Part shown: positions 2,884 to 62,145 of the stretch, in pieces | Position numbering within the stretch: the stretch's first letter is position 1 | How the letters are laid out: each line of letters opens with the position of its first letter | Assembly (NCBI GenBank): GCA_035296385.1 | Contig: DATHBB010000171.1 | Coordinates: forward strand, 7,329 to 71,328 | Origin: Pyrinomonadaceae bacterium | GTDB lineage: Bacteria; Acidobacteriota; Blastocatellia; Pyrinomonadales; Pyrinomonadaceae | Direction: 5' to 3' | Length of the DNA stretch: 64,000 bases | Notes under the pieces: model-generated | Told to the model about the DNA's origin: nothing | Database searches by the model: none | What the model saw: the letters and a program-made list of their open reading frames with translations, nothing else | Made by a program: the position numbers and the translations under genes

Positions 2884-2968
2884 AGTGACAAGTGACAGGT
2901 GACAAGTGACAAGTTAAAGCAAAAGAATTTGTCTTTAACTTGTCACTTGTCACCTGTCACTCGTCACT
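2884..2968. repeat. Heptad-periodic palindromic element H1 (GTGACAR family)
   Basis: Left arm 2884..2919 is agtgacaagtgacaggtgacaagtgacaagttaaag. Right arm 2933..2968 is its reverse complement with 1 mismatch in 36. The loop is 13 nt (caaaagaatttgt). It lies between convergent genes and its last base overlaps the stop codon of the minus-strand gene. Confidence 0.95.
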
Positions 2969-3498
2969 TAAAAGATTTCAGAGCCTTTGCGCAGAACAGA
3001 CCACGCGACATCGGTGAGCGTGTGGCTGGCCGCGCCCCACCAGAGACCGGCGAGCGCGGCGAGCGCGGCGGCGCGCCCCGTGCCTTCCAGCCGCACGCCC
3101 GCCTCTACGGCGCGCCATGCGCCGAGGAGTTCGCCGAAATCGGGCGGCGCGCCCGCGACGACGAGAGCGCGCAGGTAGACGGCCGCGATTGTCACCAGCG
3201 ACAGCATGAAGGCGAAATAGACGACGCGGATAAGCGTGCCGAAGATGATGCCATGCGACCAGCGCGAACGGTGTCGGAACATCACCTTGTAAGGCCACCA
3301 GATGAAACGAAACACGCCCCAGCGCGTGTACTGGCGCGACTGTATATCGAGGTCAGGTCCGAACATCAGCCCGCCGAACAGCATCGCGCCCGTCGTCACC
3401 GACGCCAGCAGCAGACTCCCCGTCACGCCCCACGCGGCGACGAAAGTCGGCGCGGTGAGCAACAGCGTAATCGCGTCGTGTGTTTTTCCAGAAGGCAT
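2968..3498 (-). CDS. Membrane protein resembling DUF2227 (putative metal-binding protein)
   Basis: N-terminus MPSGKTHDAITL and the motif FGPDLDIQSRQYTRWG ... HRSRWSHG, with several hydrophobic helices, match my recollection of the DUF2227/COG2389 family. Confidence 0.65.
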   Translation of the reverse strand: MPSGKTHDAITLLLTAPTFVAAWGVTGSLLLASVTTGAMLFGGLMFGPDLDIQSRQYTRWGVFRFIWWPYKVMFRHRSRWSHGIIFGTLIRVVYFAFMLSLVTIAAVYLRALVVAGAPPDFGELLGAWRAVEAGVRLEGTGRAAALAALAGLWWGAASHTLTDVAWSVLRKGSEIF

Positions 3499-3504
3499 AA
3501 GAGC

Positions 3505-3586
3505 AGAGGTTAGAGGTCAGAGGTCAGAGGTCAGTTAAAGCAACTTCTGTCTTTTACTGACCTCTGACCTCTAACCTCTGACCTCT
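3505..3586. repeat. Heptad-periodic palindromic element H2 (AGAGGTY family)
   Basis: Arms are 3505..3540 (agaggttagaggtcagaggtcagaggtcagttaaag) and 3551..3586, about 33/36 complementary, with a 10-nt loop. It lies between divergently transcribed genes, 6 nt from the start codon at 3498. Confidence 0.9.
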
Positions 3587-3683
3587 AAGGTATAGCATGT
3601 GCGCGCGCGACGACGCAAAAACGGCCGTTTGCCAGTCGCGGCGAGGGCGCGCTACACTGTCGCGCCTCGTCGGGTGCTGGTTA

Positions 3684-4676
3684 ATGAGTAAACACGGAAA
3701 ATTTCAGACGACTTTAGAATACGCCGTCACGCGCGCCCTGCTCGGCGGCCTCGGACTGTTGCCGCGCCCGGCGGCGGTCGCCACGGGTCGCGCGGCCGGC
3801 AGGCTCGCGCACAAGTTCGCGGGCGGCCTGCGTCGCACCGGCCAAATCAACCTCAAACTCGCTTTCCCCGAAATGGACCAGCGCGAGCGCGCGAAGATGC
3901 TGCGCGCGTCTTTCGACAATCTGGGACGCTTGCTCGGCGAGTTCAGCCAGTTTCCGCGCGCGACCCCGGAGAGCTTGCGCAAGCTGGTCGAGTACGATCA
4001 GGTCGGTCTGAGGCATTTGCGCGAGGCCGAGGGACAGGGGCGCGGCGTCATCTTCCTGACGGCTCATCTGGGCGCGTGGGAGTTTCTCAGTTTCGCCTGG
4101 TCTGCGCTCGAATACCCGATCAGTTTTCTCGTGCGCCCGATAGACAATCCGCGCGTCGAGGAGTTCATAGAGGGCATCCGCACACGCTACGGCAACACGG
4201 CCATCAATAAGAAAATGGCCGCGCGCCAGGCGTTGCGCGTCCTGCGCGACGGCGGCACGCTCGGCATTCTGGCCGACCTCAACACGCACCCGAACGAAGG
4301 CGTCTTCGTCCCCTTCTTCGGCCACCTCGCCTGCACCACCTCCGGCGTCGCCACGCTCGCCCTGCGCACGGACGCGCTCGTCATCCCCACCTGCGCCGTG
4401 TGGGACAAAGAGCGCGGCCGTTTCTTCTTTCACGGCGACCCACCCGTCGAATTAGTCCGCACCGGCGACGACAAACGCGACATCGAGACAAACACGGCAA
4501 ACTTCGCCGCCGCCATCGAACGCATGATCCGCGCCTACCCGGAACAGTGGCTCTGGATTCACAAACGCTGGCGCACTCGCCCCGCCGGAGAGCCTGATTT
4601 CTATAGCCGCCGGGAACAGTTCGACACAAAAGAGCCACAACTGACCGCTCCTACCAGCCGCAACAGCTTCTCCTGA
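3684..4676 (+). CDS. Lipid A biosynthesis (Kdo2-lipid IVA) acyltransferase family protein, LpxL/HtrB-like
   Basis: Start chosen at ATG 3684 (MSKHGKFQTTLEYAV). Typical N-terminal helix. LKLAFPEMDQRERAKMLRASFDNLGRLLGEF and VIFLTAHLGAWEF (H-x4-E-type acyltransferase motif) are characteristic of the LpxL/HtrB family. Confidence 0.8.
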   Translation: MSKHGKFQTTLEYAVTRALLGGLGLLPRPAAVATGRAAGRLAHKFAGGLRRTGQINLKLAFPEMDQRERAKMLRASFDNLGRLLGEFSQFPRATPESLRKLVEYDQVGLRHLREAEGQGRGVIFLTAHLGAWEFLSFAWSALEYPISFLVRPIDNPRVEEFIEGIRTRYGNTAINKKMAARQALRVLRDGGTLGILADLNTHPNEGVFVPFFGHLACTTSGVATLALRTDALVIPTCAVWDKERGRFFFHGDPPVELVRTGDDKRDIETNTANFAAAIERMIRAYPEQWLWIHKRWRTRPAGEPDFYSRREQFDTKEPQLTAPTSRNSFS

Positions 4677-4794
4677 GCACAAATTTCAAAACTTTTTTCT
4701 TTACCGAACATACCTTCTTACTCTTTATTATCAACACTTAGCTCTCAACCCGAATCTCCTTGTCACAAAATTGTCATTTTTTTGCATTTTATTG

Positions 4795-4824: not shown

Positions 4825-4830
4825 CACACA

Positions 4831-5126: not shown

Positions 5127-5207
5127 GCAGCAATCAATTTTCGGCAGACGCCGGTTCGACGGTAACTTTTCCCACTACTCGCGAACTCCCCTTCGCAAGC
5201 GACCGTC

Positions 5208-5969
5208 TCACATCGCCAGCCCGCCGTCCACCTGAATCACCTGTCCCGTGATGTAACGCGCCGCCGGTGAAACCAGAAAACACGCGATCTCGGCGACTTC
5301 CTGCGTCTCGGCGAAGCGTCCGAGCGGAATCTGTTCGAGCAGCTTCGTCTTGTAAGCGTCGTCGAGCGCGCCCGACATGTCGGTGGCGACGAGTCCGAGC
5401 GCGAGCGCGTTGACCGTCACCTTGCGGCTCGCCACCTCTTTCGCCAGAGCCTTCGTCAAACCCACAAGCCCCGCCTTCGACGCAGAGTAATTCGATTGTC
5501 CGGCCATCCCGACCAACCCGCTGATGGAGGAGATGTTCAAGACCGAGCCGCCCTCTTCCTGCCTGAGCATCACGCGCAGCGCGGCGCGCGCGAAGTTCCA
5601 GGGGCCTTTCAAATTCGTGTCCACGACAGCGTCCCAATCGGCTTCCTTCATGCGCAGGATCAGGTTATCGCGCGTGACGCCCGCGTTGTTGACGAGAAAA
5701 TCTATGCGCCCGAACGCCTCTTTGGTCTGCTTGACCATTTCGGCCACGGCCTCCGTCTGCGCCACGTCGCACTGCGTCGCCACGGCTTTCACGCCGAGCG
5801 ACTCGATCTCTGTGCGCAACTCTTCGGCGGCCTCCGCGCTCTTCGCGTAGTTGAACGCGACATGCGCGCCGCGCCTCGCCAGCTCGAGCGCGATGGCGCG
5901 ACCGATGCCGCGCGTCGCCCCGGTCACAATCGCCGCCCGCCCGTCGAAAGGTTTAGTTGCGTCGCCCAA
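5208..5969 (-). CDS. fabG: 3-oxoacyl-ACP reductase (SDR family)
   Basis: TTG start at 5969 is preceded by GAAGGAGG. Motifs: TGATRGIGRAIA (cofactor binding), NNAG, and the catalytic YSASKAG. The end-to-end sequence is FabG-like. Confidence 0.85.
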   Translation of the reverse strand: MGDATKPFDGRAAIVTGATRGIGRAIALELARRGAHVAFNYAKSAEAAEELRTEIESLGVKAVATQCDVAQTEAVAEMVKQTKEAFGRIDFLVNNAGVTRDNLILRMKEADWDAVVDTNLKGPWNFARAALRVMLRQEEGGSVLNISSISGLVGMAGQSNYSASKAGLVGLTKALAKEVASRKVTVNALALGLVATDMSGALDDAYKTKLLEQIPLGRFAETQEVAEIACFLVSPAARYITGQVIQVDGGLAM

Positions 5970-7079: not shown

Positions 7080-8387
7080 ATGCTCGATCTCAACTTTGTA
7101 CGCGACAACTTAGACCGCGTCCGCGCCGCGCTCGAAGCGCGCAACGCGCCCACCGCCGCGCTCGACGACTTCGCGCGCATGGACGCGGAGCGGAGGCGCG
7201 TCATCGCCGAGTCCGACGAACTCAACGCCGGGCGCAACGCGGCGAGCCGACGGATCGGCGCGTTGATGAAGGAAGGACGACGCGATGAAGCGGAGGCCGA
7301 GCGTCTGGAGGTCGGCCAACTCAAGGAGCGCATCGCGGAACTCGACCGCCAGCGCGACGAAGCCGAGGCGAGCATGAAGACGCTGCTCTCGACGCTTCCC
7401 AATTTGCCGCACGAGTCTGTCCCCGTCGGCGCGGACGAATCGGCCAACACGGAAGCGCGGCGGTGGGGCGCGCCGCCCGAGTTCGATTTCGAGCCGAAGG
7501 ATCACGTTGACCTCGGCACGTCGCTGCGGATACTCGACCTCGAAGACGCGGCGAAGATCGCCAGCGCGCGTTTCGCCATCCTCTACGGCGCGGGTGCGCG
7601 CCTCGAACGTGCGCTCATCAACTTCATGCTCGACGTGCATACGAGCGAGCACGGTTACAGGGAGACGCTGCCGCCTTTCATCGTCAACGAAAAGGCTCTG
7701 TTCGGCACAGGGCAGCTACCGAAGTTCGAGCAAGACCTGTTCAAGCTGACCGACGAACGCGGCCTCTATCTCATTCCGACGGCGGAAGTGCCCGTCACCA
7801 ACATTCACCGCGATGAGATGATCGAAGAATTGGAACGGCCACTGAAGTTTGTGGCCTATACTCCCTGCTTCCGCTCCGAAGCGGGCAGCTACGGGCGCGA
7901 CACGCGCGGGCTGATCCGTCAGCACCAGTTTGATAAGGTGGAACTGGTTAAACTCGCGCGTCCCGAAAATTCTTATGAGGAACTGGAAGGACTGACCCGC
8001 GATGCCGAGACGATTCTGCAAAAGCTGGGTCTGCACTACCGGGTCGTCACCCTCTCGACCGGCGATCTCGGATTCGCCTCTGCCAAGACTTACGACATCG
8101 AAGTCTGGCTGCCCTCGCAGAACACTTTCCGTGAAATCTCTTCGTGCTCTAACTTCGAGTCGTTTCAGGCGCGGCGCGCGCAGATACGATTCCGGCGCGC
8201 GGGCGGGAAGCCCGAATACGTTCACACCTTGAACGGCTCGGGTCTCGCCGTCGGGCGCACGTGGCTCGCCATTCTGGAAAACTATCAACAGGCCGACGGC
8301 TCGATCCGCATCCCCGAAGCGTTGCGGCCATATATGAACGGGATGGAGAAGATCGAAGCGGAGTCTGATGTGTTGGGACAATTCTAA
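7080..8387 (+). CDS. serS: Seryl-tRNA synthetase
   Basis: [22 protein letters not shown] coiled-coil N-terminus and class II core motifs ([38 protein letters not shown]). Confidence 0.95.
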
Positions 8388-14270: not shown

Positions 14271-14346
14271 GTGAATGGTGAATGGTAAATGGTGAATGGG
14301 GAAAACCGTTGTTTCATCGTTTACCATTCTCTATTTACCATTTACC
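14271..14346. repeat. Heptad-periodic palindromic element H3 (GTGAATG family)
   Basis: gtgaatg gtgaatg gtaaatg gtgaatg ... cgtttaccattctctatttaccatttacc. Imperfect inverted repeat lying 9 nt upstream of the mnmA start, inside its 5' UTR. Confidence 0.85.
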
Positions 14347-14461: not shown

Positions 14462-14515
14462 GTCCCAAATCTCAAGTACCGGGTCAATCGGGCTTTCGGA
14501 CTTGAGACTTGGGAC
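14462..14515. promoter_or_regulatory. Inverted repeat in the leader of the CbbQ-like gene
   Basis: gtcccaaatctcaagt (14462..14477) and acttgagacttgggac (14500..14515): 16-nt arms with 1 mismatch, ending 15 nt before the ATG at 14531. Confidence 0.5.
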
Positions 14516-20031: not shown

Positions 20032-20112
20032 AACGATGAAGTGGGAACGCGGAACGATGAACTGAAAGCAAGTGTCTTTCAGTTCATCGTTCCGCGTTCC
20101 TACTTCATCGTT
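20032..20112. repeat. Heptad-periodic palindromic element H4 (AACGATG/GGAACGC family)
   Basis: 37-nt arms (20032..20068 and 20076..20112) are complementary except for one G-T pair. The loop is 7 nt (caagtgt). It lies between convergent genes. Confidence 0.95.
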
Positions 20113-26085: not shown

Positions 26086-26228
26086 GGGGAAAGGGGAAGG
26101 GGGAAGGGATAAAGGTAAAGACAGGAAGCAGGAATTGACTCGCGCCGCTATAATTGTCTTACTCTGATTCTTTACCCTTTCCCCCTTCCCTTTTCCCTTT
26201 CCCCCTACTCATTACCCTTACCCTTTTT
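26086..26228. repeat. Heptad-periodic palindromic element H5 (GGGGAAR/GGTAAAG family)
   Basis: The left arm ggggaaa ggggaag ggggaag ggataaa ggtaaag (26086..26120) faces C/T-rich complementary repeats at 26171..26228. The central segment is about 50 nt. Pairing is imperfect. Confidence 0.8.
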
Positions 26229-28902: not shown

Positions 28903-28965
28903 AACCTGAAACCTACGCGCGGCGAGCATCGTTAGATAACTTTCCGCTTGTAGCGGCAGAAGAGA

Positions 28966-29144
28966 TTCACCGCAGAGGCGCAGAGCAAAGCCGCAAGAGG
29001 CGTCGCAGAGGAAAACGATGAAGTAGGAACGCGGAACGATGAAGTAAAAGCAACTGTCTTTAGTTCATCGTTCCGCGTTCCTACTTCATCATTTGTTTTC
29101 TCTGCGCCCGTCTCTGCGGCTTTGCTCTGCGCCTCTGCGGTGAA
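28966..29144. repeat. Palindromic element H6-outer (TTCACCGC ... GCGGTGAA family) carrying a nested element
   Basis: ttcaccgcagaggcgcagagcaaagccgcaagaggcgtcgcagagg ... cctctgcg ... ctctgcgcctctgcggtgaa. The termini are shared with the elements at 43605 and 49477. Confidence 0.9.
29014..29092. repeat. Palindromic element H6-inner (AACGATG/GGAACGC family), nested in the centre of H6-outer
   Basis: About 75/81 positions are identical to H4 at 20032..20112 by hand alignment, and it has the same loop core aaagcaa-N-tgtcttt. Confidence 0.9.
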
Positions 29145-29186
29145 TGCTTTTAGTCGTAGTTAATTTTAATCGAACAACAAACGGCC

Positions 29187-30578
29187 ATGAGTCTTAAGAA
29201 CATCATCACTTTACTGCGCGAGGCCGTCGGCGGCTCGGAGCAGGATTTCACGAAAGGCAGCATCAACCGCGCCATCGTGCTGCTCTCCGTGCCGATGATC
29301 CTGGAGATGATGATGGAGTCGCTGTTCGGCGTCGTCAACATCCTCTACGTCGCGCGGCTCGGCGCGGAATCAATCGCCACCGTCGGCCTGACCGAGTCCA
29401 TGCTCACGATCATCTTCGGCATCGCGATGGGACTCAGCATGGCGACGACGGCGACGGTCGCGCGGCGCACCGGCGAGGGCGACACGGAAGGCGCGGCGGT
29501 CGCCGCAGTTCAAGCCATCATGCTCGGCGTGCTCACGTCGCTGCCCGTGGCCGTCGTGGGCGTCGTGTACGCGCCCGCGCTCCTGCGGGTGATGGGGGCG
29601 GAGGCGGGCGTCGTCGCGAGCGGCTCTACTTACGCGGCGATCATACTCGGCGGCAACGTCTGCATCATGCTGCTGTTTCTCATCAACGCGATCTTTCGCG
29701 GCGCGGGCGACGCGGCGGTGGCGATGCGCTCGCTCTGGATCGCCAACCTCGTCAACATCGCGCTCGACCCCTGCCTCATCTTCGGACTCGGCCCCTTCCC
29801 CGAACTCGGCGTCACCGGCTCGGCCATCGCCACGACCATCGGGCGCTCAACGGGCGTCGTCTATCAACTCTGGATTCTGCTCGGCGGGCGCAGCCGCGTC
29901 AAAGTTACGCGCGCGCACCTGCGGCTCGATCCGGCTGTGATGATGAGACTGCTGCGGATTTCTCTGGGCGGGATGTTTCAATATCTCGTGGCGACGGCGA
30001 GTTGGCTGGGGCTGACGCGCATCGTCGCCATCTTCGGAAGCGAAGCTCTGGCGGGCTACACGCTCTCGCTCCGCATCATCATCTTCGCGCTCCTGCCTTC
30101 GTGGGGCATGGCGAACGTGGCGGCCACGCTCGTCGGGCAGAATCTCGGCGCAGGCCAGCCGGAGCGCGCGGAGCGTTCGGTGTGGCGGGCGGGATTGAGC
30201 AACATGATCTTTCTCGGCGCGGTCGCGCTCGTCTTCGTCGTCTTCGCCGAACGCATCATCGGCCTCTTCACGGGAGACGCGGGCGTCGTCGCCTACGGCG
30301 TCTCAAGCCTGCGCCTCTTGAGCTACGGCTACATTTTCTACGCCTACGGCATGGTGATGGTGCAGGCGTTCAACGGAGCGGGCGACACCTTCACGCCGAC
30401 CATGATCAACCTCGGCTGCTACTGGCTCTTCCAAATCCCGCTCGCCTACGCCCTCGCCATCCCTTTCGATCTGGGCGCAACAGGCGTCTTCGCGGCGATT
30501 CCCGTTAGCGAATCGCTGCTCACCATCGTCGCCGTAATCTTCTTCCGGCGCGGGCGTTGGAAGACGCAGGAAGTTTAA
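29187..30578 (+). CDS. MATE family efflux transporter
   Basis: 463 aa with about 12 predicted helices. Typical MATE N-terminus ([29 protein letters not shown]) and an internal repeat. Confidence 0.9.
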
Positions 30579-30701
30579 GTTGTCCGTGGTCAGTAGTCAG
30601 TTGTCCGTTGCATGTGGCTCTCACATGCGTGGCTAAAGATTGAATTGATCAACTGACGACAGACAAAGAACAACTGACAACGGACTACGGACAACTGACG
30701 G
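30579..30701. repeat. Heptad-periodic palindromic element H7 (CAGTTGTCCGT family)
   Basis: gttgtcc gtggtca gtagtca gttgtcc gttg ... caactgacaacggactacggacaactgacgg. Imperfect. The central part carries its own small hairpin (catgtg ... cacatg). It lies between convergent genes. Confidence 0.85.
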
Positions 30702-43604: not shown

Positions 43605-43706
43605 TTCACCGCGGAGGCGCGGAGCAAAGCCGCAGAGTGTGCGCAGACAAGATCATTCAACTCTCTCTGCGCACACTCTGCGCACACTCTGCGTCTCTGC
43701 GGTGAA
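43605..43706. repeat. Palindromic element H8 (TTCACCGC ... GCGGTGAA family)
   Basis: ttcaccgcggaggcgcggagcaaagccgcagagtgtgcgcag ... ctgcgcacactctgcgcacactctgcgtctctgcggtgaa. It starts 4 nt after the kinase stop codon. Confidence 0.9.
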
Positions 43707-43844
43707 TGCTTTCCTTCCTGAAAATCGCTCTCATGCTCGCACGCTTTTCTTCCACCCGCGCTTCCATGTTATTTTGTGGCCGCAAGCGTACAACCCGCGC
43801 AAAAGTTCCAGCCACGCGCTACGGGAAAGGGACGGCAACTTTTT

Positions 43845-48667: not shown

Positions 48668-48822
48668 TTCAGTCCTTAGTCAGTTGTCCGTTGTCAGTTG
48701 TTTATAGCTCGTAGTCCGTTGTCAGTTGTTCAATTTAATCTTTAGCAACTCGCCCGGTGCAGCACAAAACAACGGACGACGGACGACGGACAACTGACTA
48801 AGCCTGACGGACAACCGACAGT
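48668..48822. repeat. Heptad-periodic palindromic element H9 (CAGTTGTCCGT family)
   Basis: gtcagttgtccgttgtcagttg ... gtagtccgttgtcagttgtt faces aaacaacggacgacggacgacggacaactgac ... Imperfect. It lies between divergent genes, 5 nt from the start codon at 48663. Confidence 0.85.
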
Positions 48823-49476: not shown

Positions 49477-49577
49477 TTCACCGCAGAGGCGCAGAGCAGA
49501 ACCGCAGAGGGGGCGCAGAGAAGAAGTTAATCTTTTCTCTGCGCCCCCTCTGCGCCTCTCTGCGTCTCTGCGGTGAA
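49477..49577. repeat. Palindromic element H10 (TTCACCGC ... GCGGTGAA family)
   Basis: ttcaccgcagaggcgcagagcagaaccgcagagggggcgcagag ... ctctgcgccccctctgcgcctctctgcgtctctgcggtgaa. It lies between convergent genes. Confidence 0.9.
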
Positions 49578-49601
49578 GGGTTTTATTCCTTTCAAACAAA
49601 C

Positions 49602-50561: not shown

Positions 50562-50605
50562 TAAATTCGCTCCACAAATGATTTTCGACTTTTTCGACTG
50601 TGCGG

Positions 50606-52431: not shown

Positions 52432-52971
52432 TTGAAACTTGTCCCAGCACTCGGCCTTGCCTGCCTGTTGCTTTTGCCCGCTACTACGTTTTCTGCGCAG
52501 CCGCGCCAGCGCCGCAGCACGACGCCGCAGAGGCGTCCCGCAGCGACCCGCTCGCAGAAGCCCGCGACGGCGAGCACCAGCACGCTCAACGAGGCGCGCA
52601 TACGCCTCACCGACGAGTTGAAGACGCTGACGCGCTTTCTCTATCTATACGGGCGCACCTCGATTGGCGTGGAGAACAACGAGAAGCAGGCGCGCGACGC
52701 GGGCGCGGTCTCGCCCGAAGCGCAGGCCATACTCAACCGCAGCCGCTCGACCGTGCTTGAGAGCGTAGGCAACATACGCGACCGCCTCGACAAACTCGAA
52801 CTCTACTTCCGCACGACGCCCGGCCTCGAACAACAATACCGGCGCTTAACCGGAGTCGCCGCCACCGCCGCCACCGCCGAACAGCGCGCCAACTCCGGCC
52901 AACTCGACGCCGCCGGACGCACCCTCATCGAAGTCGCCAACCAACTCGCAGACGCGCTTCTGGAAATGTGA
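52432..52971 (+). CDS. Secreted hypothetical protein
   Basis: GGAGGA RBS before TTG 52432. Signal peptide MKLVPALGLACLLLLPATTFSAQ. Helical body. No family recognised. Confidence 0.55.
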   Translation: MKLVPALGLACLLLLPATTFSAQPRQRRSTTPQRRPAATRSQKPATASTSTLNEARIRLTDELKTLTRFLYLYGRTSIGVENNEKQARDAGAVSPEAQAILNRSRSTVLESVGNIRDRLDKLELYFRTTPGLEQQYRRLTGVAATAATAEQRANSGQLDAAGRTLIEVANQLADALLEM

Positions 52972-52975
52972 GAGC

Positions 52976-53052
52976 AGTGACAAGTGACGAGTGACAAGTT
53001 AAAGACAGGTGCTTTGCTTTAACTTGTCACTCGTCACTTGCCACTTGTCACT
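52976..53052. repeat. Heptad-periodic palindromic element H11 (GTGACAR family, loop core inverted)
   Basis: agtgacaagtgacgagtgacaagttaaag ... ctttaacttgtcactcgtcacttgccacttgtcact. The stop codon of the minus-strand gene (53048..53050) lies inside the right arm. Confidence 0.9.
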
Positions 53053-54271
53053 TCTTCACGTAGTAGCCTGAGCGGGCGCGGACGCGTGCGTCGGCGCGTG
53101 CGGGCGTGCGGACTTTGATGTTGAGAAACTTGCCGTTGGGCGCGTCGCTGTTGGAATAGTATTGGAGTAAATACTGCGCGCGGAGTTCGGCGGCGATGCG
53201 GCGAAGGATTTCGTCGAACTCTTCGACCTGTTCGGGTTTGAAGGACGCGCCGCCCGTCGTCTCTGCGAGTTGCTGCATGCCTTCCTGTGCGCGCGTGCCG
53301 CGTGCATTGAACTTGAGTCCGCCGCCGCTCGGGTTGATGGAATAAAAGACGGCGTCGGCGCGCTGCACCTCGCGCTGCACTTCGAGGAGCGCGCGGCGGT
53401 GCGTGTCGCGCTGGCGCGTAAGGGCATTGGCGGGCAATTTCTCGCCGCGATTCCGGGCTCGCGCTTCTTCAACTTCGCCTTCGCGCACGCGGTCGCTGTA
53501 GTTGTCGTCGCCGTCGGAGATGGCGAGGATGACGCGCCGGTGGCGACCGGGCGCGTTCTGCGCGAGATAGCGCGCCGCCGTGATGGTTGCGTCGTAGAAG
53601 GCCGTCGGCGTAGGCTTTTGCGGTGCGGGAATCTTGAGCAGCGAGGCCGAGGCGATTTCGGCGGAGGCGAGTTGCTGTTCGAGTCGCGGCGTCTGTTCGA
53701 TGCGGAAGACGGCGGCGCGATCAACCGGCTTCAAGACCTGTTTCAAGAAGCGCGCGGCGGCCTCCTGCTCGAACGCGAAACGCTGCCCGACGCTGCTCGA
53801 CACGTCGAAGAGGATGGCGATGTCGAGCGGCACTTGATCGGCGTCGCCCACCTGCGCGATCTCCTGCGCGCGCCCTTCCTCTTCCAGACGAAAATCCGTC
53901 GCCTTCAACCCCTGCACCGGCTCGCCCTGCGCGTTCGTCACGGAGACGGGCACGACCACCAGATTCGACGTAACGCGCACGATGTCGTCGTCGTCGCTGA
54001 TGGTCTCGTCGGTCACGGGCGTCTGCGGCGCGGGCGTCGGCGTCGGCTTTGAAGTTTGTTGCGGCGCGGGCGTCGGCGTCTGCTGCGGCGTCGGCGTCGG
54101 GAGTTGCGGGACGCAGACCGGTTGTTGTTGCGACGCGGACGAAGTGTTGTCACTCGTCTGCCGTGCGCTCGCGCTCGTCCCGTAGAAAAAAGCTGCCGGC
54201 GTACTTCCGAGAAAGATTGCCAGCACGAGTAGCGTCCGCAGCTTGTTGTTAACTGAGTTCATCGAAACCAC
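53048..54271 (-). CDS. VWA-domain protein of the acidobacterial VWFA-related type (TIGR03436-like)
   Basis: Signal peptide, Pro/Thr/Gln-rich linker, then FRLEEEGRAQEI ... DIAILFDVSSSV (MIDAS) ... VILAISDGDDNYS ... VFYSINP. Confidence 0.8.
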   Translation of the reverse strand: MVSMNSVNNKLRTLLVLAIFLGSTPAAFFYGTSASARQTSDNTSSASQQQPVCVPQLPTPTPQQTPTPAPQQTSKPTPTPAPQTPVTDETISDDDDIVRVTSNLVVVPVSVTNAQGEPVQGLKATDFRLEEEGRAQEIAQVGDADQVPLDIAILFDVSSSVGQRFAFEQEAAARFLKQVLKPVDRAAVFRIEQTPRLEQQLASAEIASASLLKIPAPQKPTPTAFYDATITAARYLAQNAPGRHRRVILAISDGDDNYSDRVREGEVEEARARNRGEKLPANALTRQRDTHRRALLEVQREVQRADAVFYSINPSGGGLKFNARGTRAQEGMQQLAETTGGASFKPEQVEEFDEILRRIAAELRAQYLLQYYSNSDAPNGKFLNIKVRTPARADARVRARSGYYVKK

Positions 54272-54281
54272 CCTTGATGAA

Positions 54282-54373
54282 GAAAGGGGTAAAGTGGAAG
54301 GGGTAAAGGGTAAAGTGAAAACCGAAACAGGCTTCCTCTTCTTCCTTTACCCTTTGCCCTTTACCCCTTCCCC
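54282..54373. repeat. Heptad-periodic palindromic element H12 (GGGTAAAG family)
   Basis: gaaaggg gtaaagt ggaaggg gtaaagg gtaaagt gaaaacc ... cctttaccctttgccctttaccccttcccc. It lies between two same-strand genes. Confidence 0.85.
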
Positions 54374-54387
54374 GTCTTATGCGTTGC

Positions 54388-55440: not shown

Positions 55441-55815
55441 TTTTTTCTTTCTCCCACTTAGCTGAATTATAAAATTTGGCTGCTGCTGTTCCTCGAAGGC
55501 GACGATTCGCGGCGCGAGTTGTTTACTGCCCGACAAAGAAAAAGCGTCGCAGCGACCACATGCTGCGGCGCACCGGACGCTTATGTCGGGTGCGCGCCCA
55601 CGAACCGTTCTGACCAACCCACGCGAGGTGTTGTTTTGGTTTCCCTGAATCGCCTGTGATTCTCTTCAAACATGTTTGGGGAGTCAAGAGCGTAGATGAC
55701 AAAAAGACGCGTTTCCGTTGCGCCGAAGCGATTTAGAATTTGATCGCCACGCTATCGCAACAATTTGAAGTGGAAAGGCAACGGGCGACGCGCGAAAGTG
55801 AAGACTGGTAAAACG

Positions 55816-55845
55816 TTGACATTTGAATCCTCGCCTGATTATCTT
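55816..55845 (+). promoter_or_regulatory. Sigma70-like promoter candidate (TTGACA, 17-18 nt spacer, TTATCT/TATCTT)
   Basis: TTGACA at 55816..55821 and a -10-like box at 55839..55845, about 70 nt upstream of ATG 55916. Confidence 0.4.
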
Positions 55846-55915
55846 TCACGCCGACCGCGAATCGTCACGGGCCGCCGCTCTTCGTAATTCCTTCAACAAA
55901 CGTCGGAGCGTTTCC

Positions 55916-57184: not shown

Positions 57185-57207
57185 GGCAATGTAACCGCTC
57201 CACGCAA

Positions 57208-57243
57208 AAGGTGGCCGCTACTCCGAGGAGTAGCGGCCACCTT
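57208..57243. terminator. Bidirectional hairpin terminator between convergent genes
   Basis: aaggtggccgctactcc ga ggagtagcggccacctt: 17-bp perfect stem, with a short A run upstream and a T-rich tract (ctttgtt) downstream. Confidence 0.8.
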
Positions 57244-57259
57244 CTTTGTTGTCCCCGAA

Positions 57260-58789
57260 CTAGACCGAAAATTGTCCGGCTTCAAGCAACTCTTTGACAT
57301 AGGCGAGGAAGCGCTCGGCGTCCGCGCCGTCGATGATGCGGTGGTCGAAGGAGAGCGCGAAGTAGGCCATGTGACGGATGGCGATGTAGTCGTCGCCTTC
57401 GGGCGTGGTCAAGACTTTCGCGCGCTTCTCAATCGTGCCGATGCCGAGGATGGCGACCTGCGGCTGGTTGATGATGGGCGTGCCGAAGAGGCCGCCGAAG
57501 ACGCCGGGGTTCGTGACGGTGAAGGTGCCGCCCGCCACCTCGTCGGGCTTGAGTTGCTTGTTGCGTGCGCGGTCGGCCAGATCGTTTGCGGCGCGCGCGA
57601 GGCCGGAGATAGAGAGGTCGTCGGCGCGTTTGATGACGGGCACGATCAAGCCCCAGTCGAGCGCGACGGCCATGCCGAGATTGATGTCCTGCTTGTAGAC
57701 GATCTGATCGCCACTGACCTGCGAGTTGAAGATCGGAAACTTGCGCAGCGCGTTCGTGATGGCCTGGAAGATGAACGGCATGTAGGTCAACTTCGTGCCC
57801 GTGCGCTGCTGGAACTCCGCCTTGTGACGGTCGCGTAGCTTGGCGATGCGCGTCATGTCGATCTCATAGACGGTCGAGACGTGCGCCGACGTGTTCTGCG
57901 ACATGATCATGTGCTCGGCGATCTTCTTGCGCATCAGGGTCATCGGCTCGACGCGGTCGCCTGCACCGGGTTGCACGTGCGGCGCTTGCGCGGGCGGCGT
58001 CTGCACGGCGGGCTGCTGTTGCGGTTGCTGTTGCGGCGCACGCGCTTCGGCTGGCTGCGACTGCTCCGCGCCCGATTCGATGAAGCTGAGAATGTCGTTT
58101 TTGGTGACGCGCCCGCTCATCCCCGTGCCTTCGAGGCGCGTGATGTCTATGTTGTGCTCGCGCGCGATGTTGCGCACAAGCGGACTGGACTTCGTGCGAC
58201 GCAAATCTTCTACCGACTGCGCGCCGCCGTTTGCGCCGGTGGATGCGTCAACCGCCTGCTCGCCGCCGTTGCCCGCGCCCGACGCGCCTGATGCGAGCGA
58301 CTGGCCTTCCGCCTTCGCGCCCGGGCGCTCCGAGTCGTAACTCCTGCCCGCGACCTCGGCGGTCTGCGGCGATACGGGCGGCGCGGCAGATGCTTGCGAT
58401 GCCGGTTGTGTCGTCGTCGCCTGCGGAGGCGCGGGCGGCGGCGCGCTTTCGACGGCGGCTTGCGCGGCGGGCGCGGGAGTTGCGGCAGCAGGCGCGCTCG
58501 CCGCCGCCGCAGGTTGCGCGCTGGCAGGGGGCGCGGCGCTGGCAGTCTCACCCTCCGCGCCGATGAATGCCACGACCTTGTTCACCTCGACCGTCTCGCC
58601 CTCTTTGAACAAGACCTCGATGAGCGTCCCGGCGGCGGGGCTGGGAATTTCCGCGTCAACCTTGTCGGTCGAAATCTCGAACAGCGGCTCGTCGCGCTCC
58701 ACGCGCTCGCCCACCTGCTTCATCCAACGCGTGATCGTGCCCTCGGCGATGGACTCGCCCATCTGCGGCATCACAACTTCTGTACTCAT
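57260..58789 (-). CDS. 2-oxoacid dehydrogenase E2 (dihydrolipoamide acyltransferase)
   Basis: Lipoyl domain (MPQMGESIAEGTI ... EISTDKVDAEIPSP), Ala/Pro linker, E3-binding domain (SPLVRNIAREHNIDITRLEGTGMSGRVTKNDI) and a catalytic domain with SFDHRIIDG. Confidence 0.9.
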   Translation of the reverse strand: MSTEVVMPQMGESIAEGTITRWMKQVGERVERDEPLFEISTDKVDAEIPSPAAGTLIEVLFKEGETVEVNKVVAFIGAEGETASAAPPASAQPAAAASAPAAATPAPAAQAAVESAPPPAPPQATTTQPASQASAAPPVSPQTAEVAGRSYDSERPGAKAEGQSLASGASGAGNGGEQAVDASTGANGGAQSVEDLRRTKSSPLVRNIAREHNIDITRLEGTGMSGRVTKNDILSFIESGAEQSQPAEARAPQQQPQQQPAVQTPPAQAPHVQPGAGDRVEPMTLMRKKIAEHMIMSQNTSAHVSTVYEIDMTRIAKLRDRHKAEFQQRTGTKLTYMPFIFQAITNALRKFPIFNSQVSGDQIVYKQDINLGMAVALDWGLIVPVIKRADDLSISGLARAANDLADRARNKQLKPDEVAGGTFTVTNPGVFGGLFGTPIINQPQVAILGIGTIEKRAKVLTTPEGDDYIAIRHMAYFALSFDHRIIDGADAERFLAYVKELLEAGQFSV

Positions 58790-58804
58790 ATAATCTCCCT
58801 AAGA

Positions 58805-58892
58805 CAGTGACAAGTGACGAGTGACAGGTGACAAGTTAAAACAAAAGAACTTGTCTACCGTCTCGTCACCTGTCACTCGTCACTTGTCACTG
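58805..58892. repeat. Heptad-periodic palindromic element H13 (GTGACAR family)
   Basis: cagtgacaagtgacgagtgacaggtgacaagttaaaac ... gtctaccgtctcgtcacctgtcactcgtcacttgtcactg. It lies between same-strand genes of the dehydrogenase cluster. Confidence 0.9.
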
Positions 58893-59165
58893 TTTTTCTG
58901 CCGTCGTCGGATCGATGATCGTTCTGATCTCGGAAATGCGGTTCGCCGGAAAGCCGCCCTGCGACGCGTGCTCGCGCACCATCTCCTCGTTCGGCGCGAT
59001 ATAGACGCAATAGATTTTGTCGTCCGTCACGTAACTCTGCACCCACTGAATCTGCGGTCCCAGATCGTTCAGGACGCCGCAAGACTTCTGCGAGATGGCC
59101 TGCAACGCGTCGCCCGTCAACTTCCCCGCCTCCGGAAATTCTCGCTCAATAACATACTTCGGCAT
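58887..59165 (-). CDS. DUF4242-like small protein
   Basis: MPKYVIEREFPEAGKLTGDALQAISQKSCGVLNDLGPQIQWVQSYVTDDKIYCVYIAPNEEMVREHA matches my recollection of DUF4242. Its last codons overlap the right arm of H13. Confidence 0.7.
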   Translation of the reverse strand: MPKYVIEREFPEAGKLTGDALQAISQKSCGVLNDLGPQIQWVQSYVTDDKIYCVYIAPNEEMVREHASQGGFPANRISEIRTIIDPTTAEKQ

Positions 59166-59182
59166 GATCGTACTCCTCAAAA

Positions 59183-59271
59183 CAGAATTCAGAACTCAGA
59201 ATACAGAAGCCGGAATAAAGACAAGAGTGAGGTTTTTAATTCTGACTCCTGTGTTCTGAATTCTGACTTCT
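59183..59271. repeat. Heptad-periodic palindromic element H14 (CAGAATT family)
   Basis: cagaatt cagaact cagaata cagaagc cggaata aag ... tttttaattctgactcctgtgttctgaattctgacttct. Imperfect. Confidence 0.85.
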
Positions 59272-59276
59272 ACACT

Positions 59277-60305
59277 TTAATACGCCGCCAGTTTGCGCGC
59301 CGCTGCGAGCACGTCTTTGATCTGCGGCAGGTGATATTCTTCGAGCGGCGGCGAATAGGGCACGGGCGTGTCAATCGCCGCGAGGCGCACGACTGGTGCG
59401 TCCAACCACTCGAACGCCTCTTCGGCAATCGTCGCCGCGATCTCGCCGCCGATGCCGCCCGTGCGCGCCGCCTCGTGCAAGATCAAAACCTTGTTCGTCT
59501 TCTTTACCGACGCGAGTATCGCAGGCTTGTCCATCGGCGCGAGCGTGCGCAGGTCTATCACTTCAACGTCCAGACCTTCTTTCTCTAATTCCTCAGCCGC
59601 GTCGAGCGCGTTCAGGACCTGCGCGCCGAACGTGATGATGGACAGGTCGCGCCCCTCGCGCGCCGTGCGCGCTTTGCCGATTTCTACTATGTAGTCGTCC
59701 TCCGGCAACTCTTCGCGCAGGCGCGGGAGGCGGTAGAGTTTCTTGTGCTCGAAGTAGAGCACGGGGTCGGGGTCGCGTATGGCGGCTTTAATCAAACCCT
59801 TCGCGTCGTAGGCCGTTGAAGGCTCGACGATCTTCAAGCCCGCCGTGTTCAAAAAGAACGACTCGGCGTTGACCGAATGGAACGGCCCCGAGTGCACGCC
59901 CGCGCCGCAAGGGCCGCGAAACACTGTCGGCAGCCCCGCGCCCCAGCGGTAACGACACTTCGCCGCGTAGTTCGTCAACATGTCGAAGCCGGGCGAGATG
60001 AAGTCTATGAACTGAAACTCCGCGACGGGTCGCATCCCCATCAGCGCCGCGCCGCACGCCGCGCCGACAATCGCCGCCTCCGAGATCGGCGTGTCGATCA
60101 CGCGCCCCTCGCCGAACTCGTCTAAAAGGCCGTCCGTGACTTTGAACGCGCCGCCGTAAGCGCCCACGTCCTCGCCGATGACGAACACGCTGGGGTCGCG
60201 CTCCATCTCTTCCCAGATGCCCTGACGGATCGCCTCTACAAACGTCGCCACGCCGCCGCGCGACGGGCGGTTCGATTTATGCTCTTTTTTAACTGCGGTT
60301 GACAT
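59277..60305 (-). CDS. 2-oxoacid dehydrogenase E1 component, beta subunit
   Basis: Full-length similarity to the transketolase-like E1 beta family (VFVIGEDVGAYGGAFKVTDGL ... RVIDTPISEAAIVG ... FQFIDF). Confidence 0.9.
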   Translation of the reverse strand: MSTAVKKEHKSNRPSRGGVATFVEAIRQGIWEEMERDPSVFVIGEDVGAYGGAFKVTDGLLDEFGEGRVIDTPISEAAIVGAACGAALMGMRPVAEFQFIDFISPGFDMLTNYAAKCRYRWGAGLPTVFRGPCGAGVHSGPFHSVNAESFFLNTAGLKIVEPSTAYDAKGLIKAAIRDPDPVLYFEHKKLYRLPRLREELPEDDYIVEIGKARTAREGRDLSIITFGAQVLNALDAAEELEKEGLDVEVIDLRTLAPMDKPAILASVKKTNKVLILHEAARTGGIGGEIAATIAEEAFEWLDAPVVRLAAIDTPVPYSPPLEEYHLPQIKDVLAAARKLAAY

Positions 60306-60327
60306 ATCGGATGAAAGATATCGCCTC

Positions 60328-60879
60328 TTATTTTACGGTGATGGTCTGCGCGCTCTTGAGCAGACTTTCCTTATATTTTTCGTGCTGTGCGATGGTCGAA
60401 TTGAAGTTGAACAACAGCAGTTGGCCGTCGAAGACGGTGAAATACATATCGTTGATGACGCCCGTGTCAATCGCCGCCGCCTTCAAGTGCAGGCGAACCC
60501 AGCGCGTCCCGTTGAGCGTGACGATCTCGCGCACGATCCATTCAAGGCCGGGGATGCCGCTCTCAAGTTGCTTCTCCATCATCTTCTTCAACTCGTCCAG
60601 GGCTATTGGCGGAAGTCCGCTGCCCCTAGCCCCGAAAGCGACCGAGACGTTGTGCCGCTCATTCGCACTGTAGGCGACATCCGGCGCGTAGGCCGCACCG
60701 TTGCGACCGTACTTGAAGTTGATGTCCTCTTTCGACATCGGCTTGAATCCGGGGGGCGGCACGAAGCTGACGCGCCCGTCTTTGAATTGCACACGTTCAG
60801 CGGTTTGCGCGTGAGCGTTCGCGCCCGACAAGACAAAGGCCAGCAGGACGAAAGCGACGACGAGGTTCGCACGTCTCAT
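60328..60879 (-). CDS. Secreted hypothetical protein inserted between E1 alpha and E1 beta
   Basis: Signal peptide MRRANLVVAFVLLAFVLSGANAHAQ. No family recognised. The start lies 3 nt after the E1 alpha stop. The 3' third is visibly more AT-rich than the neighbouring genes. Confidence 0.6.
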   Translation of the reverse strand: MRRANLVVAFVLLAFVLSGANAHAQTAERVQFKDGRVSFVPPPGFKPMSKEDINFKYGRNGAAYAPDVAYSANERHNVSVAFGARGSGLPPIALDELKKMMEKQLESGIPGLEWIVREIVTLNGTRWVRLHLKAAAIDTGVINDMYFTVFDGQLLLFNFNSTIAQHEKYKESLLKSAQTITVK

Positions 60880-60882
60880 ATC

Positions 60883-62019
60883 TCAATTGCCCCCGAAGAC
60901 TTTCGGGCGAAACGCGGGCGGCACGATTGAGTTATCGAAGACGCCGTAAGCGGCCTTCTCCGCGTCGGGCATCGGCGACTCCTCGGCCCACGCCACGTCC
61001 TCGTCAATCTCGCGCACGACGCCCGCGACGATCTCGTCAAGCTCGGCCTGCGTCGCGACATTTTGCGTCAACAGGTGGCGCGTGAATCTATCGACGGGGT
61101 CGCGCTTCTCCCACATCGCGAGTTCTTCGGAGGCGATGTAACGCTGGTCGTCGTGCTCCGCGTGGCCTTTGCGCCGGTAGGTCTTGGCTTCGATCAAAAC
61201 CGCCCCGCCGCCCCCGCGCGCAAACTCCGCCGCGCGCTTCGTCACTTCGTAACAGGCGATGATGTCGTTGCCGTCAACGATGTGGCCGGGGATGCCGTAG
61301 CCTGCGGCCTTGTCTGCGAGGTTCTCAACGGCTGTCTGCAAGCGCGTCGGCGTCGAGTAGGCGTACCAGTTGTGTTCGGCGATGATGATGACGGGAAGGC
61401 GCTGCACGGCGGCGAAGTTCAGCCCCTCGTGGAACGCGCCCGTGCTCATGCCGCCGTCGCCGATGTAGGCCATCGCGACGATCTCTTTCTTCTGCATGCG
61501 CGCGCCGAGCGCGATGCCGGTCATCACCGGGATCATGTCGCCGAGGTGCGAGATGGGGCCGATGAAGCCCTTCTCCATGTTGCCGAAGTGGATGTTGAGG
61601 TCGCGCCCTTCCGACGGCCCCCACGCCTTCGCCATGTACTGCGCGAAAATCTCACGCGGGCGGATACCCTTCACCAGCACCGCGCCGAGATCGCGTATGA
61701 GCGGCGCGATGAAGTCCTGTTTATCGAGCGCGTAGCACGTCCCCACCGCCGTCGCTTCCTGACCGAGCGAACGAAAGACGCCGCCGACAACTTTCGTCTG
61801 CCGGTACAAATTCACCAGCCGCTCTTCGACGAGCCGCGTCAGCAACAGGTAGCGATACAACTCCAACAACTGCTCGCGCCCGAGCGTCGTCTCCGTCGTG
61901 CAGATCAACTCCTCGTCGGCGACGCCTGCCGACGCGTTCGCGCCGTTGCCGTCCGCACCTTTGCGACCCTTCGCCTCGCCCTGCTTCGACGCGCCTTTGC
62001 GCTTTGTCTCTGTCTTCAT
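60883..62019 (-). CDS. 2-oxoacid dehydrogenase E1 component, alpha subunit (TPP-dependent)
   Basis: TPP-binding motif YIGDGGMSTGAFHEGLNFAAV ... IIAEHN. Full-length E1 alpha-like sequence. Confidence 0.9.
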   Translation of the reverse strand: MKTETKRKGASKQGEAKGRKGADGNGANASAGVADEELICTTETTLGREQLLELYRYLLLTRLVEERLVNLYRQTKVVGGVFRSLGQEATAVGTCYALDKQDFIAPLIRDLGAVLVKGIRPREIFAQYMAKAWGPSEGRDLNIHFGNMEKGFIGPISHLGDMIPVMTGIALGARMQKKEIVAMAYIGDGGMSTGAFHEGLNFAAVQRLPVIIIAEHNWYAYSTPTRLQTAVENLADKAAGYGIPGHIVDGNDIIACYEVTKRAAEFARGGGGAVLIEAKTYRRKGHAEHDDQRYIASEELAMWEKRDPVDRFTRHLLTQNVATQAELDEIVAGVVREIDEDVAWAEESPMPDAEKAAYGVFDNSIVPPAFRPKVFGGN

Positions 62020-62025
62020 AAAAGA

Positions 62026-62145
62026 TTGTCAGTGGTCAGTTGTCCGTCGCCAGTTGTTTTCGTCTCGCCTAACTTGAGAGCCTGAACTTTAGCCCGCCGC
62101 CCGTGCTACACAAACAACGGACAACTGACTACGGACAACTGGCAG
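62026..62145. repeat. Heptad-periodic palindromic element H15 (CAGTTGTCCGT family)
   Basis: attgtcagtggtcagttgtccgtcgccagttgttt ... aaacaacggacaactgactacggacaactggcag. It lies between lpd and E1 alpha on the same strand. Confidence 0.85.

Follow-up and report, generated by a model that had tools for sequence, protein, structure and literature searches.

A population of small palindromic repeats, most of them with arms built from tandem 7-nt units, lies in the intergenic gaps of a 64,000-nt stretch of DNA from a Pyrinomonadaceae bacterium (Acidobacteriota; assembly GCA_035296385.1, contig DATHBB010000171.1, positions 7,329 to 71,328 of the forward strand; hereafter the window). The window is core chromosome of a Gram-negative bacterium and encodes the C-terminus of SecA, SerRS, MnmA, LpxL, a TonB-dependent receptor, LipA and an lpd-E1alpha-E1beta-E2 operon. 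Dozens of unit families share one plan and one polarity. Members of one family, alike even in their non-repetitive apex, are found at unlinked sites in a single genome as well as in many species, and orthologous gaps turn over fast. The reading that we favour, with confidence about evenly balanced, is that the elements form a lineage-restricted population of small non-coding palindromic repeats, constructed on a heptameric-repeat plan and similar in behavior to repetitive extragenic palindromic (REP) sequences and to MITEs, or miniature inverted-repeat transposable elements.

An earlier note on the window had described 15 long palindromes with heptamer-array arms. A repeat finder recovered inverted repeats at all 15 positions, with arms of 20-62 nt that are 78-97% complementary, and Tandem Repeats Finder reported a period of 7 in both arms of most of them. 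We scanned the window for lag-7 arrays and found 18, whereas 30 shuffles that preserved dinucleotide frequencies averaged 0.27; any other lag yielded 0-6 arrays, except for the harmonic at 14, the sole other one enriched. A scan for gapless hairpins (score ≥16) detected 16 strong hairpins in the window and 0 in every one of 20 shuffles. A sixteenth element, at 14462-14515, had been absent from the earlier list. All 16 elements fold as RNA into long hairpins, with free energies between -31 and -88 kcal/mol and z-scores between -3.4 and -15, and the near-perfect pairing reported at 2884 (35/36) and at 20032 (36/37 plus one G-T pair) is correct. The heptameric description itself holds for 12-13 elements. 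Three others, namely the outer arms at 28966 and the palindromes at 43605 and 49477, constitute family D, which is not heptameric, has the ends GATTCACCGCAGAGGCGCAGAG...CTCTGCGGTGAATGC and carries GCAGAG sub-repeats every 8-11 nt, while the elements at 20032 and 29013 are mixes of degenerate heptamers (lag-7 identity of 0.53-0.59).

The claim that the elements fill nearly every larger gap was overstated, since only 15 of the 29 gaps of at least 75 nt hold one; four others hold ordinary terminator-like hairpins. In most of the occupied gaps the element makes up 50-100% of the length. Their independence of gene orientation was borne out, the occupied gaps being 5 convergent, 3 divergent and 7 tandem, with three of the tandem ones inside the 2-oxoacid dehydrogenase operon. 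Also visible in the sequence are the reported contacts with stop codons (2968, 53048) and the closeness to start codons (3498, 14262, 48663). Hairpins of the ordinary terminator type, whose stems are GC-rich and 16-19 bp long and whose flanks are rich in A and T, lie at 13021-13064, 19236-19283, 31479-31522 and 57208-57243; as these coexist with the heptamer elements, conventional terminators are not missing from the genome.

We then described the anatomy of the elements in 0.89 Mb of loci carrying the signature of family A, whose units are GTGACAA and GTGACAG (related loci or contigs from other genomes or metagenomes used for comparison are given L-numbers). This sample contains 208 strong heptamer hairpins with more than 40 unit sequences, for example GTGACAA, GTGAATC, GTTGTCC/GTAGTCA, GTGATGA, GGGTAAA, AGAGGTC, ATTGCGG, GTTTCAR, GGGATGA, GCTGTTA and AAGTCYC, the last of which, found at the sixteenth element of the window, also occurs in L064, L070 and L104. 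The common plan spans ~75-130 nt. It opens with an A-rich leader that ends in CA, followed by four heptamers and an AAAG-type apex stem; past a variable loop, CTTT leads into four complementary heptamers, and a T-rich trailer closes the element. Arm length is tightly fixed, with 4 units in 278 of 432 arms, 3 units in 79 and 5 units in 52; the correlation between left and right array lengths (r = 0.2) is uninformative because the lengths hardly vary. Within a family, a 5-nt core is invariant and one or two positions are free, as in GTGAC followed by RR. The ends are equally defined: among the ends of family A (n = 251) the consensus reads (T)AARARCA|GTGAC, the first GTGAC being preceded by seven bases, A (0.73), A/G, A (0.64), A/G, C (0.63) and A (0.96) in the pattern AARARCA, the mirror end reads GTCACTG(Y)TTT, and the array never runs on outward. 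A loop-proximal AAAG/CTTT-like stem is found in many families, and families A, B and C of the window have AGTTAAAGCAA...TGTCTTTAAC in common.

Compared to ordinary, non-heptamer hairpins, which served as controls for position, polarity and stop codons (n = 111 for the latter two), the elements have a pronounced polarity. The 5′ arm contains more G than C in 224 of 235 hairpins (103 of 114 without family A), compared to 71 of 111 controls, and C makes up only 12% of it. In 143 of 235 elements, compared to 3 of 111 controls, the 5′ arm, being C-poor and G-rich, contains a stop codon in each reading frame; we do not rely on this enrichment, as it exceeds base composition only ~1.6-fold by a hand estimate from the counts.

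In relation to genes, the elements are squeezed in between stop and start codons or overlap with them. With gene sides assigned by a codon-usage score trained on Pfam-supported window genes, the elements lie a median of 3 nt past a stop codon (≤10 nt in 125 of 160 cases; median of 30 nt for ordinary hairpins) and a median of 13 nt before a start codon (≤20 nt in 151 of 231; median of 92 nt for ordinary hairpins). The start codon is ATG in 81% of the cases that lie within 30 nt of a start (n = 165). Co-directional genes flank 134 of the 164 fully classified copies (82%). The stretch preceding the start is T-rich (TTTCTT-ATG), and a Shine-Dalgarno-like motif is found in only 17% of copies. In the window, the divergent gap between mnmA and a cbbQ-like gene contains two elements, one beside each start codon.

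The elements are not confined to the window, because the family-A signature (GTGACRAGTGACAAGTTAAAR), scanned in one genome per species, is present at at least 115 loci in at least 25 species-level genomes among the matches listed; the proposal of a genome-wide family thus held up. Nearly all of these genomes are metagenome-assembled genomes (MAGs) labelled Pyrinomonadaceae or Acidobacteriota. We also compared 80 loci around orthologs of E1beta (76-96% amino-acid identity). The density of strong heptamer hairpins per 10 kb is 1.8 at ≥90% E1beta identity and then falls with distance to 0.39, 0.21 and 0.10, the last below 85%. The family-D signature (GATTCACCGCAGAGGCGCAGAG...) was found in 1 of 197 related loci (L177, position 14635), so that this family appears specific to the window's own lineage.

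A few occurrences lie outside Acidobacteriota. In two MAGs labelled Verrucomicrobiota, an orthologous site contains a heptamer hairpin like those of family A, 9 nt away from a start codon (L067, 4577-4659; L077, ~7930-8000), meaning either that the element type crosses phyla or that these contigs are mis-binned. Two low-GC MAGs of the candidate phyla radiation, assigned to Doudnabacteria (L019) and Daviesbacteria (L063), contain GTGACAA/GTTACAA arrays ending in GTTAAAA, one of which is a single arm and the other an imperfect hairpin just upstream of an ATG. In more distant relatives (L131, L174, L178 and L185; L167-L182), other repeat types occupy the same spacers, including CAGGATT/ACAAGATT arrays rich in ANGGA motifs as well as REPIN-like elements of the GTAG type (GTTTAGAAGCGGGCTACCGCCCG...CGGGCCGTAGCCCGACTCTAAAC).

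Comparison at two scales indicated how the elements change. Two metagenome contigs align to the window without gaps at 99.5% and 99.9% identity, and no element contains an indel. All 65 single-nucleotide polymorphisms (SNPs) between window positions 49929-64000 and the 99.5% identical contig L001 are genic, with 0 in elements; over the same interval, the 1.76 kb of non-coding DNA has 0 SNPs, where ~9 would be expected at the genic rate. Near-identical strains thus give no sign of microsatellite-like instability in the elements. Between relatives, presence and family differ: among the 80 orthologous loci, the Lpd-E1alpha, E1beta-p92 and p92-E2 spacers (p92 being a 92-amino-acid gene) hold differing unit families, single arms, other repeat types or nothing. 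Loci L173 and L175, identical over 2848 nt and 99.6% identical over 556 nt, have swapped the whole spacer from TAA to ATG, one allele carrying a CTTTGYA-type element and the other a GTCAGT-type element. Similarly, L024 and L066 have flanks that are 96% identical and carry family A and family E (GTTGTCC/GTAGTCA-type), respectively, in one spacer, while keeping the same family-A element in another. Upstream of mnmA, the GTGAATG units of the window correspond to AGTGAAG, AGTGAAA, AGTGCCG and AGTGACA units in the ortholog L027 (an AGTGAAR/AGTGACA element).

Copying of whole elements is suggested by a ~40-nt non-repeat apex, CAGAAACCTTGTCTTTAAACTTGTCTTGATTCYKGCTC, that six family-A copies have in common. 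Two of the six come from one MAG; one pair is orthologous, and the other copies have unrelated flanks. In the orthologous pair, 5 of the 12 loop positions differ, as do 2 of the 56 arm positions, which, on sequence grounds, hints at some constraint on the arms. Elements also nest within one another, as with family C at the apex of family D at 29013 and with GTTTCAR or GTGAATC arrays inside family-A loops at several loci. Single-arm arrays are present in L124, L140 and L141.

If the elements are indeed REP/MITE-like, they would spread by copy-and-paste through a trans-acting activity encoded elsewhere, which would probably recognize the hairpin or the periodicity and not one sequence. They might then persist where they do least harm, since stops in all frames of the 5′ arm would end incoming reading frames and the stem would rejoin the flanks; an element that ends incoming frames and folds back on itself would be tolerated for that reason.

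Several results weigh against this mobility. Pfam analysis of 46 window open reading frames (ORFs) revealed no transposase in the 64 kb. The earlier note had pointed to REP-associated tyrosine transposase (RAYT) or IS200-type enzymes; we carried out a tblastn search of ~1.5 Mb of related loci, a sample of loci and not of whole genomes, using two approximate Y1 transposase queries, and verified the matches with Pfam. RAYT-like matches included L077 beside L181 and L067, and the two RAYT-like genes in L181 (21 bits) and L067 (36 bits) each have repeats of their own as flanks, which are not heptameric. In this limited sample, no long version of family A enclosing a gene was found, 101 of 101 arm pairs being ≤150 nt apart. 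TA or TAA is common at both ends of family A; as these bases are palindromic and usable as a stop codon, they cannot be separated from the palindrome or the stop, and no unambiguous target-site duplication was found. Among the 80 orthologous operon loci, we found no clean empty/filled site pair with alignable flanks. More than 40 families would need either many cognate enzymes or one structure-specific enzyme, and we know of no such enzyme. Lastly, mobility alone does not account for the 7-nt period or the polarity of the arms.

The two RAYT-like genes were noted in their own right. In L181, the ORF at 5139-5789 (Pfam Y1_Tnp, 21 bits, just under the cut-off, with an HYH motif) lies in the p92-E2 spacer between flanks GTTCAGAGTTCAAGCTTTAGCTTG and CAATCTAAAGATTGAACTCTAAAC, and the E1beta-p92 spacer of L168 contains the same inverted pair, GTTCAGAGTTCAAGCTTTAGCTTG and CAATCTAAAGATTGAACTCTAAAC, without a gene, forming a hairpin. 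These repeats constitute a REPtron/REPIN-like system in the same spacers as heptamer elements. In L067, the Y1_Tnp gene (2403-2948, 36 bits) lies 1.6 kb from a heptamer hairpin and is flanked by direct copies of its own REP (GGAGCCGGCACGCCCTCGTGCCGGAGGCTTAACG).

The pairing of the arms bears on two further claims made about the window, hairpin-templated expansion and selection on the structure itself. In apex-anchored copies of family A (19 copies), the opposite arm is complementary at variant positions in 45% of cases in register, compared to 42% after a slide of 7 nt, and arm mismatches are transitions in 77% of cases and mostly uncompensated. In sense RNA of co-directional gene pairs, G-U-compatible mismatches number 88 and A-C mismatches 85. 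Given this near-equal mirroring and the lack of a G-U excess, neither hairpin-templated expansion nor selection for RNA pairing is supported by these data; arms fixed at about 4 units across families also lend expansion no support, and the anticipated copy-number change was not seen in the near-identical strains. The common architecture, formerly taken as evidence of selection, could instead reflect a common mode of origin. The absence of a G-U preference also counts against the RNA role that our favored reading envisages, as does the fact that most copies have no U-tract. Three known classes were rejected. CRISPRs, with direct repeats of 24-48 nt around unique spacers of like length, are ruled out on anatomy, as noted before, since the 7-nt units here are contiguous and in inverted pairs. 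A known RNA family is ruled out because Rfam at the gathering score returns only a tRNA-Ser in the window and no match in the elements. Intrinsic terminators, which combine a short GC-rich stem with a loop of 3-8 nt and a U-tract directly 3′ of it and were already thought not to fit, are ruled out by a consensus terminator scan of window positions 44-64 kb, which flags no element and flags the ordinary hairpin at 57208, and by the scarcity of T-tracts, only ~22-27% of copies having a flanking A- or T-tract.

Two alternatives concern what the elements do. Host-selected RNA structures, acting as bidirectional terminators, 3′-end stabilizers or processing sites (e.g. for RNase III), would account for differing sequences with one architecture and for the very stable folds, and they agree with the position close to stop codons, with the element or ordinary terminator hairpin found in 7 of 10 convergent window gaps, and with the unequal loop and arm changes of the orthologous CAGAAACCTTGTCTTTAAACTTGTCTTGATTCYKGCTC pair. 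Flanking tracts are oriented accordingly, with A4 on the left in 63 of 231 copies and T4 on the right in 50 of 231, compared to 6 and 15 in the reverse arrangement. Nevertheless, about three quarters of the copies lack a T-tract, the terminator scan flags none, and ordinary terminators exist alongside. Three elements lie within one operon and three in divergent promoter gaps, and the predominant location is between co-directional genes, with the next start codon only ~13 nt away. Orthologous sites do not consistently hold an element, and unit variants are mostly uncompensated, with no G-U bias in sense RNA; we thus consider this explanation unlikely. It is highly improbable that the arms are arrays of four 7-bp-phased DNA-binding sites for a nucleoid-associated, regulatory or partition-type protein, the inverted symmetry then denoting a dimeric or tetrameric binder or cruciform extrusion. 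Reiterated sites typically have an invariant 5-nt core with one or two free positions, as here, the length of three heptamers corresponds to two helical turns, and no RNA-specific signature is present, but a single lineage contains more than 40 unrelated cores, sites are not kept at orthologous positions, placement tracks codon boundaries and not promoters, and no candidate protein was found.

The other alternatives concern how the elements arise. They may be microsatellites made in place, slipped-strand mispairing producing the arrays and intrastrand template switching the palindromes, with nothing moving; like units would then recur through mutational or compositional preference. That over 40 unrelated units have one 7-nt period points to a process independent of sequence, an excess of heptameric simple-sequence repeats is reported for many bacteria (PMC4692102), the units upstream of mnmA in the window and in L027 look like local drift, and single-arm arrays exist. 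Both parts of this account, the production in place and the recurrence by preference, nonetheless seem to us to have little chance of being right, because arms are sharply fixed at 4 units and not broadly spread, strains 99.5-99.9% identical show no length polymorphism, outer ends are defined and apex motifs conserved, an identical 40-nt non-repeat apex stands at unlinked loci, and near-identical strains swap a whole spacer to an unrelated unit family. A quite improbable alternative is break repair, in which a G-rich heptamer would be added ~4 times, by template or slippage, to both 3′ ends of a double-strand break before the ends are joined. This would yield in one step a palindrome with a G-rich 5′ arm on both strands and hence the polarity observed with and without family A; it would also account for equal short arms with highly variable loops, for whole-spacer replacement and, through a later break in a hairpin loop, for a nested younger element of another family, and Xanthomonas pairs show the same polarity. 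The model, which we infer throughout, would thus explain several otherwise unexplained features at once. However, we know of no bacterial enzyme with such an activity and identified none in this analysis, and the apex and non-repeat sequence common to unlinked copies fit whole-element copying better. Because the 7-nt period, the four-unit arms and the polarity are common to dozens of unrelated sequences and to Xanthomonas, we also considered a broader proposal, for which the chances are slim. One sequence-independent machine new to bacteria would make the elements, either by telomere-healing-like addition of heptamers to both 3′ ends of a break or by structure-specific copying of hairpins, and, in addition, the stem joining a stop codon (~3 nt) to the next start codon (~13 nt, usually without a Shine-Dalgarno sequence) would let ribosomes re-initiate, as in ribosome shunting.

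Under the favored reading of a REP/MITE-like population, co-transcribed elements would form RNA hairpins of 25-40 bp. In E. coli, ribosomes are stalled by REPs situated no more than 15 nt from a stop codon (PMC12306157). By analogy with such REPs located <16 nt from a stop, the elements could hinder ribosomes as they terminate and, between cistrons, serve as barriers to decay or as partial terminators; an influence on translation termination, mRNA ends and the coupling of neighboring genes is likely.

The elements of the window are listed below with their immediate context.

Table. Palindromic elements of the window, with unit family, pairing, predicted folding and position relative to genes (minus sign in parentheses, reverse strand).
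Element	Position	Arms and apex	Free energy (kcal/mol)	z-score	Gene context
Family A (GTGACAA/GTGACAG) hairpin	2884..2968	36-nt arms, 35/36 paired; apex AGTTAAAG...CTTTAACT	-62.9	-14.4	Convergent gap; 5 nt past stop of 1667-2878; right end abuts TAA stop of 2968-3498(-)
Family B (AGAGGTC/AGAGGTT) hairpin	3505..3586	36-nt arms; apex AGTTAAAGCAA...TGTCTTTTAC as in family A			Divergent gap; 6 nt from DUF2227 start codon, 10 nt from lpxL start
Family G (GTGAATG/GTAAATG) hairpin	14271..14346				8 nt upstream of mnmA start codon
AAGTCYC-family hairpin	14462..14515	GAGTCCC/AATCTCA...ACTTGAGACTTGGGAC		-3.8	Ends 15 nt before ATG at 14531
Family C (AACGATG/GAACGCG/AAGTGGG) hairpin	20032..20112	37-nt arms, 36/37 plus one G-T	-67.1	-15	Convergent gap
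Right half of family-D arm	20113-20150				Directly after family C element 20032..20112
Family F (GGGGAAG/GGTAAAG) hairpin	26086..26223	55-nt loop			7 nt past mscS stop codon; tandem genes
Composite element, families D and C	28965..29145	Outer arms family D (GATTCACCGCAGAGGCGCAGAG...); family-C heptamer hairpin 29013-29094 nested at apex			
Family E (GTTGTCC/GTGGTCA/GTAGTCA) hairpin	30578..30700				Begins at matE TAA stop; ends 4 nt from stop codon of 30705-31439(-)
Family D palindrome	43605..43710	Not heptameric	-76.2		3 nt past stop codon of histidine kinase 41736-43601
Family E hairpin	48668..48822	Long, partly repeated interior			Divergent gap; 4-11 nt from start codon of alcohol dehydrogenase 47632-48663(-)
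Family D palindrome	49477..49580	Not heptameric	-88.4		Convergent gap
Family A hairpin	52973..53055	Apex oppositely oriented			4 nt past stop of 52432-52971; TGA stop of 53048-54271(-) within outermost TTGTCAC unit
Family F (GGGGTAA/AGGGTAA) hairpin	54282..54373				Between start of 53048-54271(-) and stop of ompA-like gene 54388-55440(-)
Family A hairpin	58801..58896				Within lpd-E1alpha-E1beta-p92-E2 operon; TGA stop of 92-aa gene (58887-58889) is TGA of outermost GTCAC unit; E2 Shine-Dalgarno and ATG 16 nt past other end
Family H (CAGAATT/CAGAACT) hairpin	59183..59271				Same lpd-E2 operon, between E1beta and 92-aa gene
Family E hairpin	62026..62145				Same lpd-E2 operon; 3 nt past lpd stop codon, 6 nt before E1alpha start codon

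Three observations unrelated to the elements were made along the way. Overlapping tandem repeats with periods of 9, 15, 18 and 24 (CGGCACGAC, AACGCGAACTCCGG-type) occupy window positions 19773-19943 inside the small ORF 19621-20001; as their periods are multiples of three, we regard them as coding repeats, unlike the heptamers. The end of an ORF at 24254-24700, which has a PD-(D/E)XK endonuclease domain (PF11645), overlaps the first 10 nt of tRNA-Ser(TGA) (24691-24776). Finally, contigs L142 and L145, which are 99.4% identical, differ by a 163-nt indel in a coding region (9631 in L142, 16518-16680 in L145) that may reflect the assembly or a difference between strains.

Since 2007 it has been recognized that many bacteria contain an excess of heptameric repeats, and neither the origin nor the role of these is agreed upon. 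The Pyrinomonadaceae lineage amounts to an unusually rich natural experiment on this question, with dozens of unit families, one rigid plan, strict polarity, nesting, codon-level placement and very fast turnover between strains, so that the origin becomes testable by population metagenomics and in cultured Pyrinomonadaceae. Since hairpins of 25-40 bp sit in roughly half of the larger gaps between the genes of these abundant soil bacteria, the elements will affect models of operon expression, prediction of terminators and small RNAs, metagenome assembly and strain typing. Full-text literature searches returned no paper on such repeats in Acidobacteria.

The earlier note could not assign the elements to a named class. 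In behavior they come close to two. REPs and REPINs, which are mobilized by RAYT (Y1) transposases, are marked by a conserved tetranucleotide, GTAG or CGTC, that terminates each palindromic unit on one side. The heptamer elements resemble them as high-copy extragenic hairpin palindromes, with several families per genome, lineage blooms and rapid turnover, that are sited just past stop codons and receive other elements in their loops; GTAG-type REPIN-like elements and RAYT-like genes are themselves present in related loci (L168, L181). Unlike REPs, the heptamer elements have no GTAG or CGTC end tag (family A ends in AARARCA|GTGAC, CGTC occurs only within the variant GTGACGA, and the ends of other families are unrelated), their arms are tandem heptamers and not one imperfect palindrome, and no RAYT gene with heptamer-arm flanks was found in the ~1.5-Mb sample. 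The Correia/NEMIS MITEs of Neisseria form a single family, in which the terminal inverted repeat measures 26 bp and a TA duplication is proven. Common features include a length of ~100-150 nt, the lack of coding capacity, terminal inverted repeats, location beside genes, co-transcription as long hairpins, TA at both ends and the ability to supply stop codons or alter expression. In contrast to Correia elements, the whole arm here is a heptamer array, dozens of families exist, and no unambiguous duplication or parent insertion sequence was found in the loci sampled.

Two systems share the heptamer itself. In Beggiatoaceae, cyanobacteria and Bacteroidetes, direct TAACTGA arrays are located shortly before start codons (MacGregor 2015, PMC4679880), and the orange Guaymas 'Maribeggiatoa' genome contains 170 repeat sets, with one inverted case (PMC4679880). 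Like these arrays and the cyanobacterial short tandemly repeated repetitive sequences, our elements are intergenic tandem heptamers, many of them a few nucleotides before starts, with stop-containing units and a patchy phyletic spread; the former differ in being direct arrays, often long, and not four-plus-four hairpins. The closest precedent is in Xanthomonas, whose genomes carry ~185 (GGGAATC)n arrays, mostly of four units and ~90% intergenic (Rehm et al. 2015, PMC4692102), at an average of 28 nt from the upstream ORF, close to its 3′ end (PMC4692102). Between 70 and 75 array pairs per genome are convergent inverted repeats that could form stem-loops, with the G-rich array as the 5′ arm on each strand, and the arrays, which were studied for G-quadruplex formation, are not retained beside the same genes from one related species to another (PMC4692102). 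With the exception of family D, the elements described here agree with them in period 7, four-unit mode, placement, polarity and turnover. G-tracts of the Xanthomonas kind occur only in family F (GGGGAAG/GGGTAAA), and not in the GTGACAA, AGAGGTC, GTTGTCC or CAGAATT units, and the majority of the units described here are unable to form quadruplexes. A related kind of repeat had thus been described. New relative to the essentially single G-rich unit of Xanthomonas are the multiplicity of more than 40 units, nearly all copies of which are paired into hairpins, the conserved apex and ends, the way in which elements nest and their contact with start codons.

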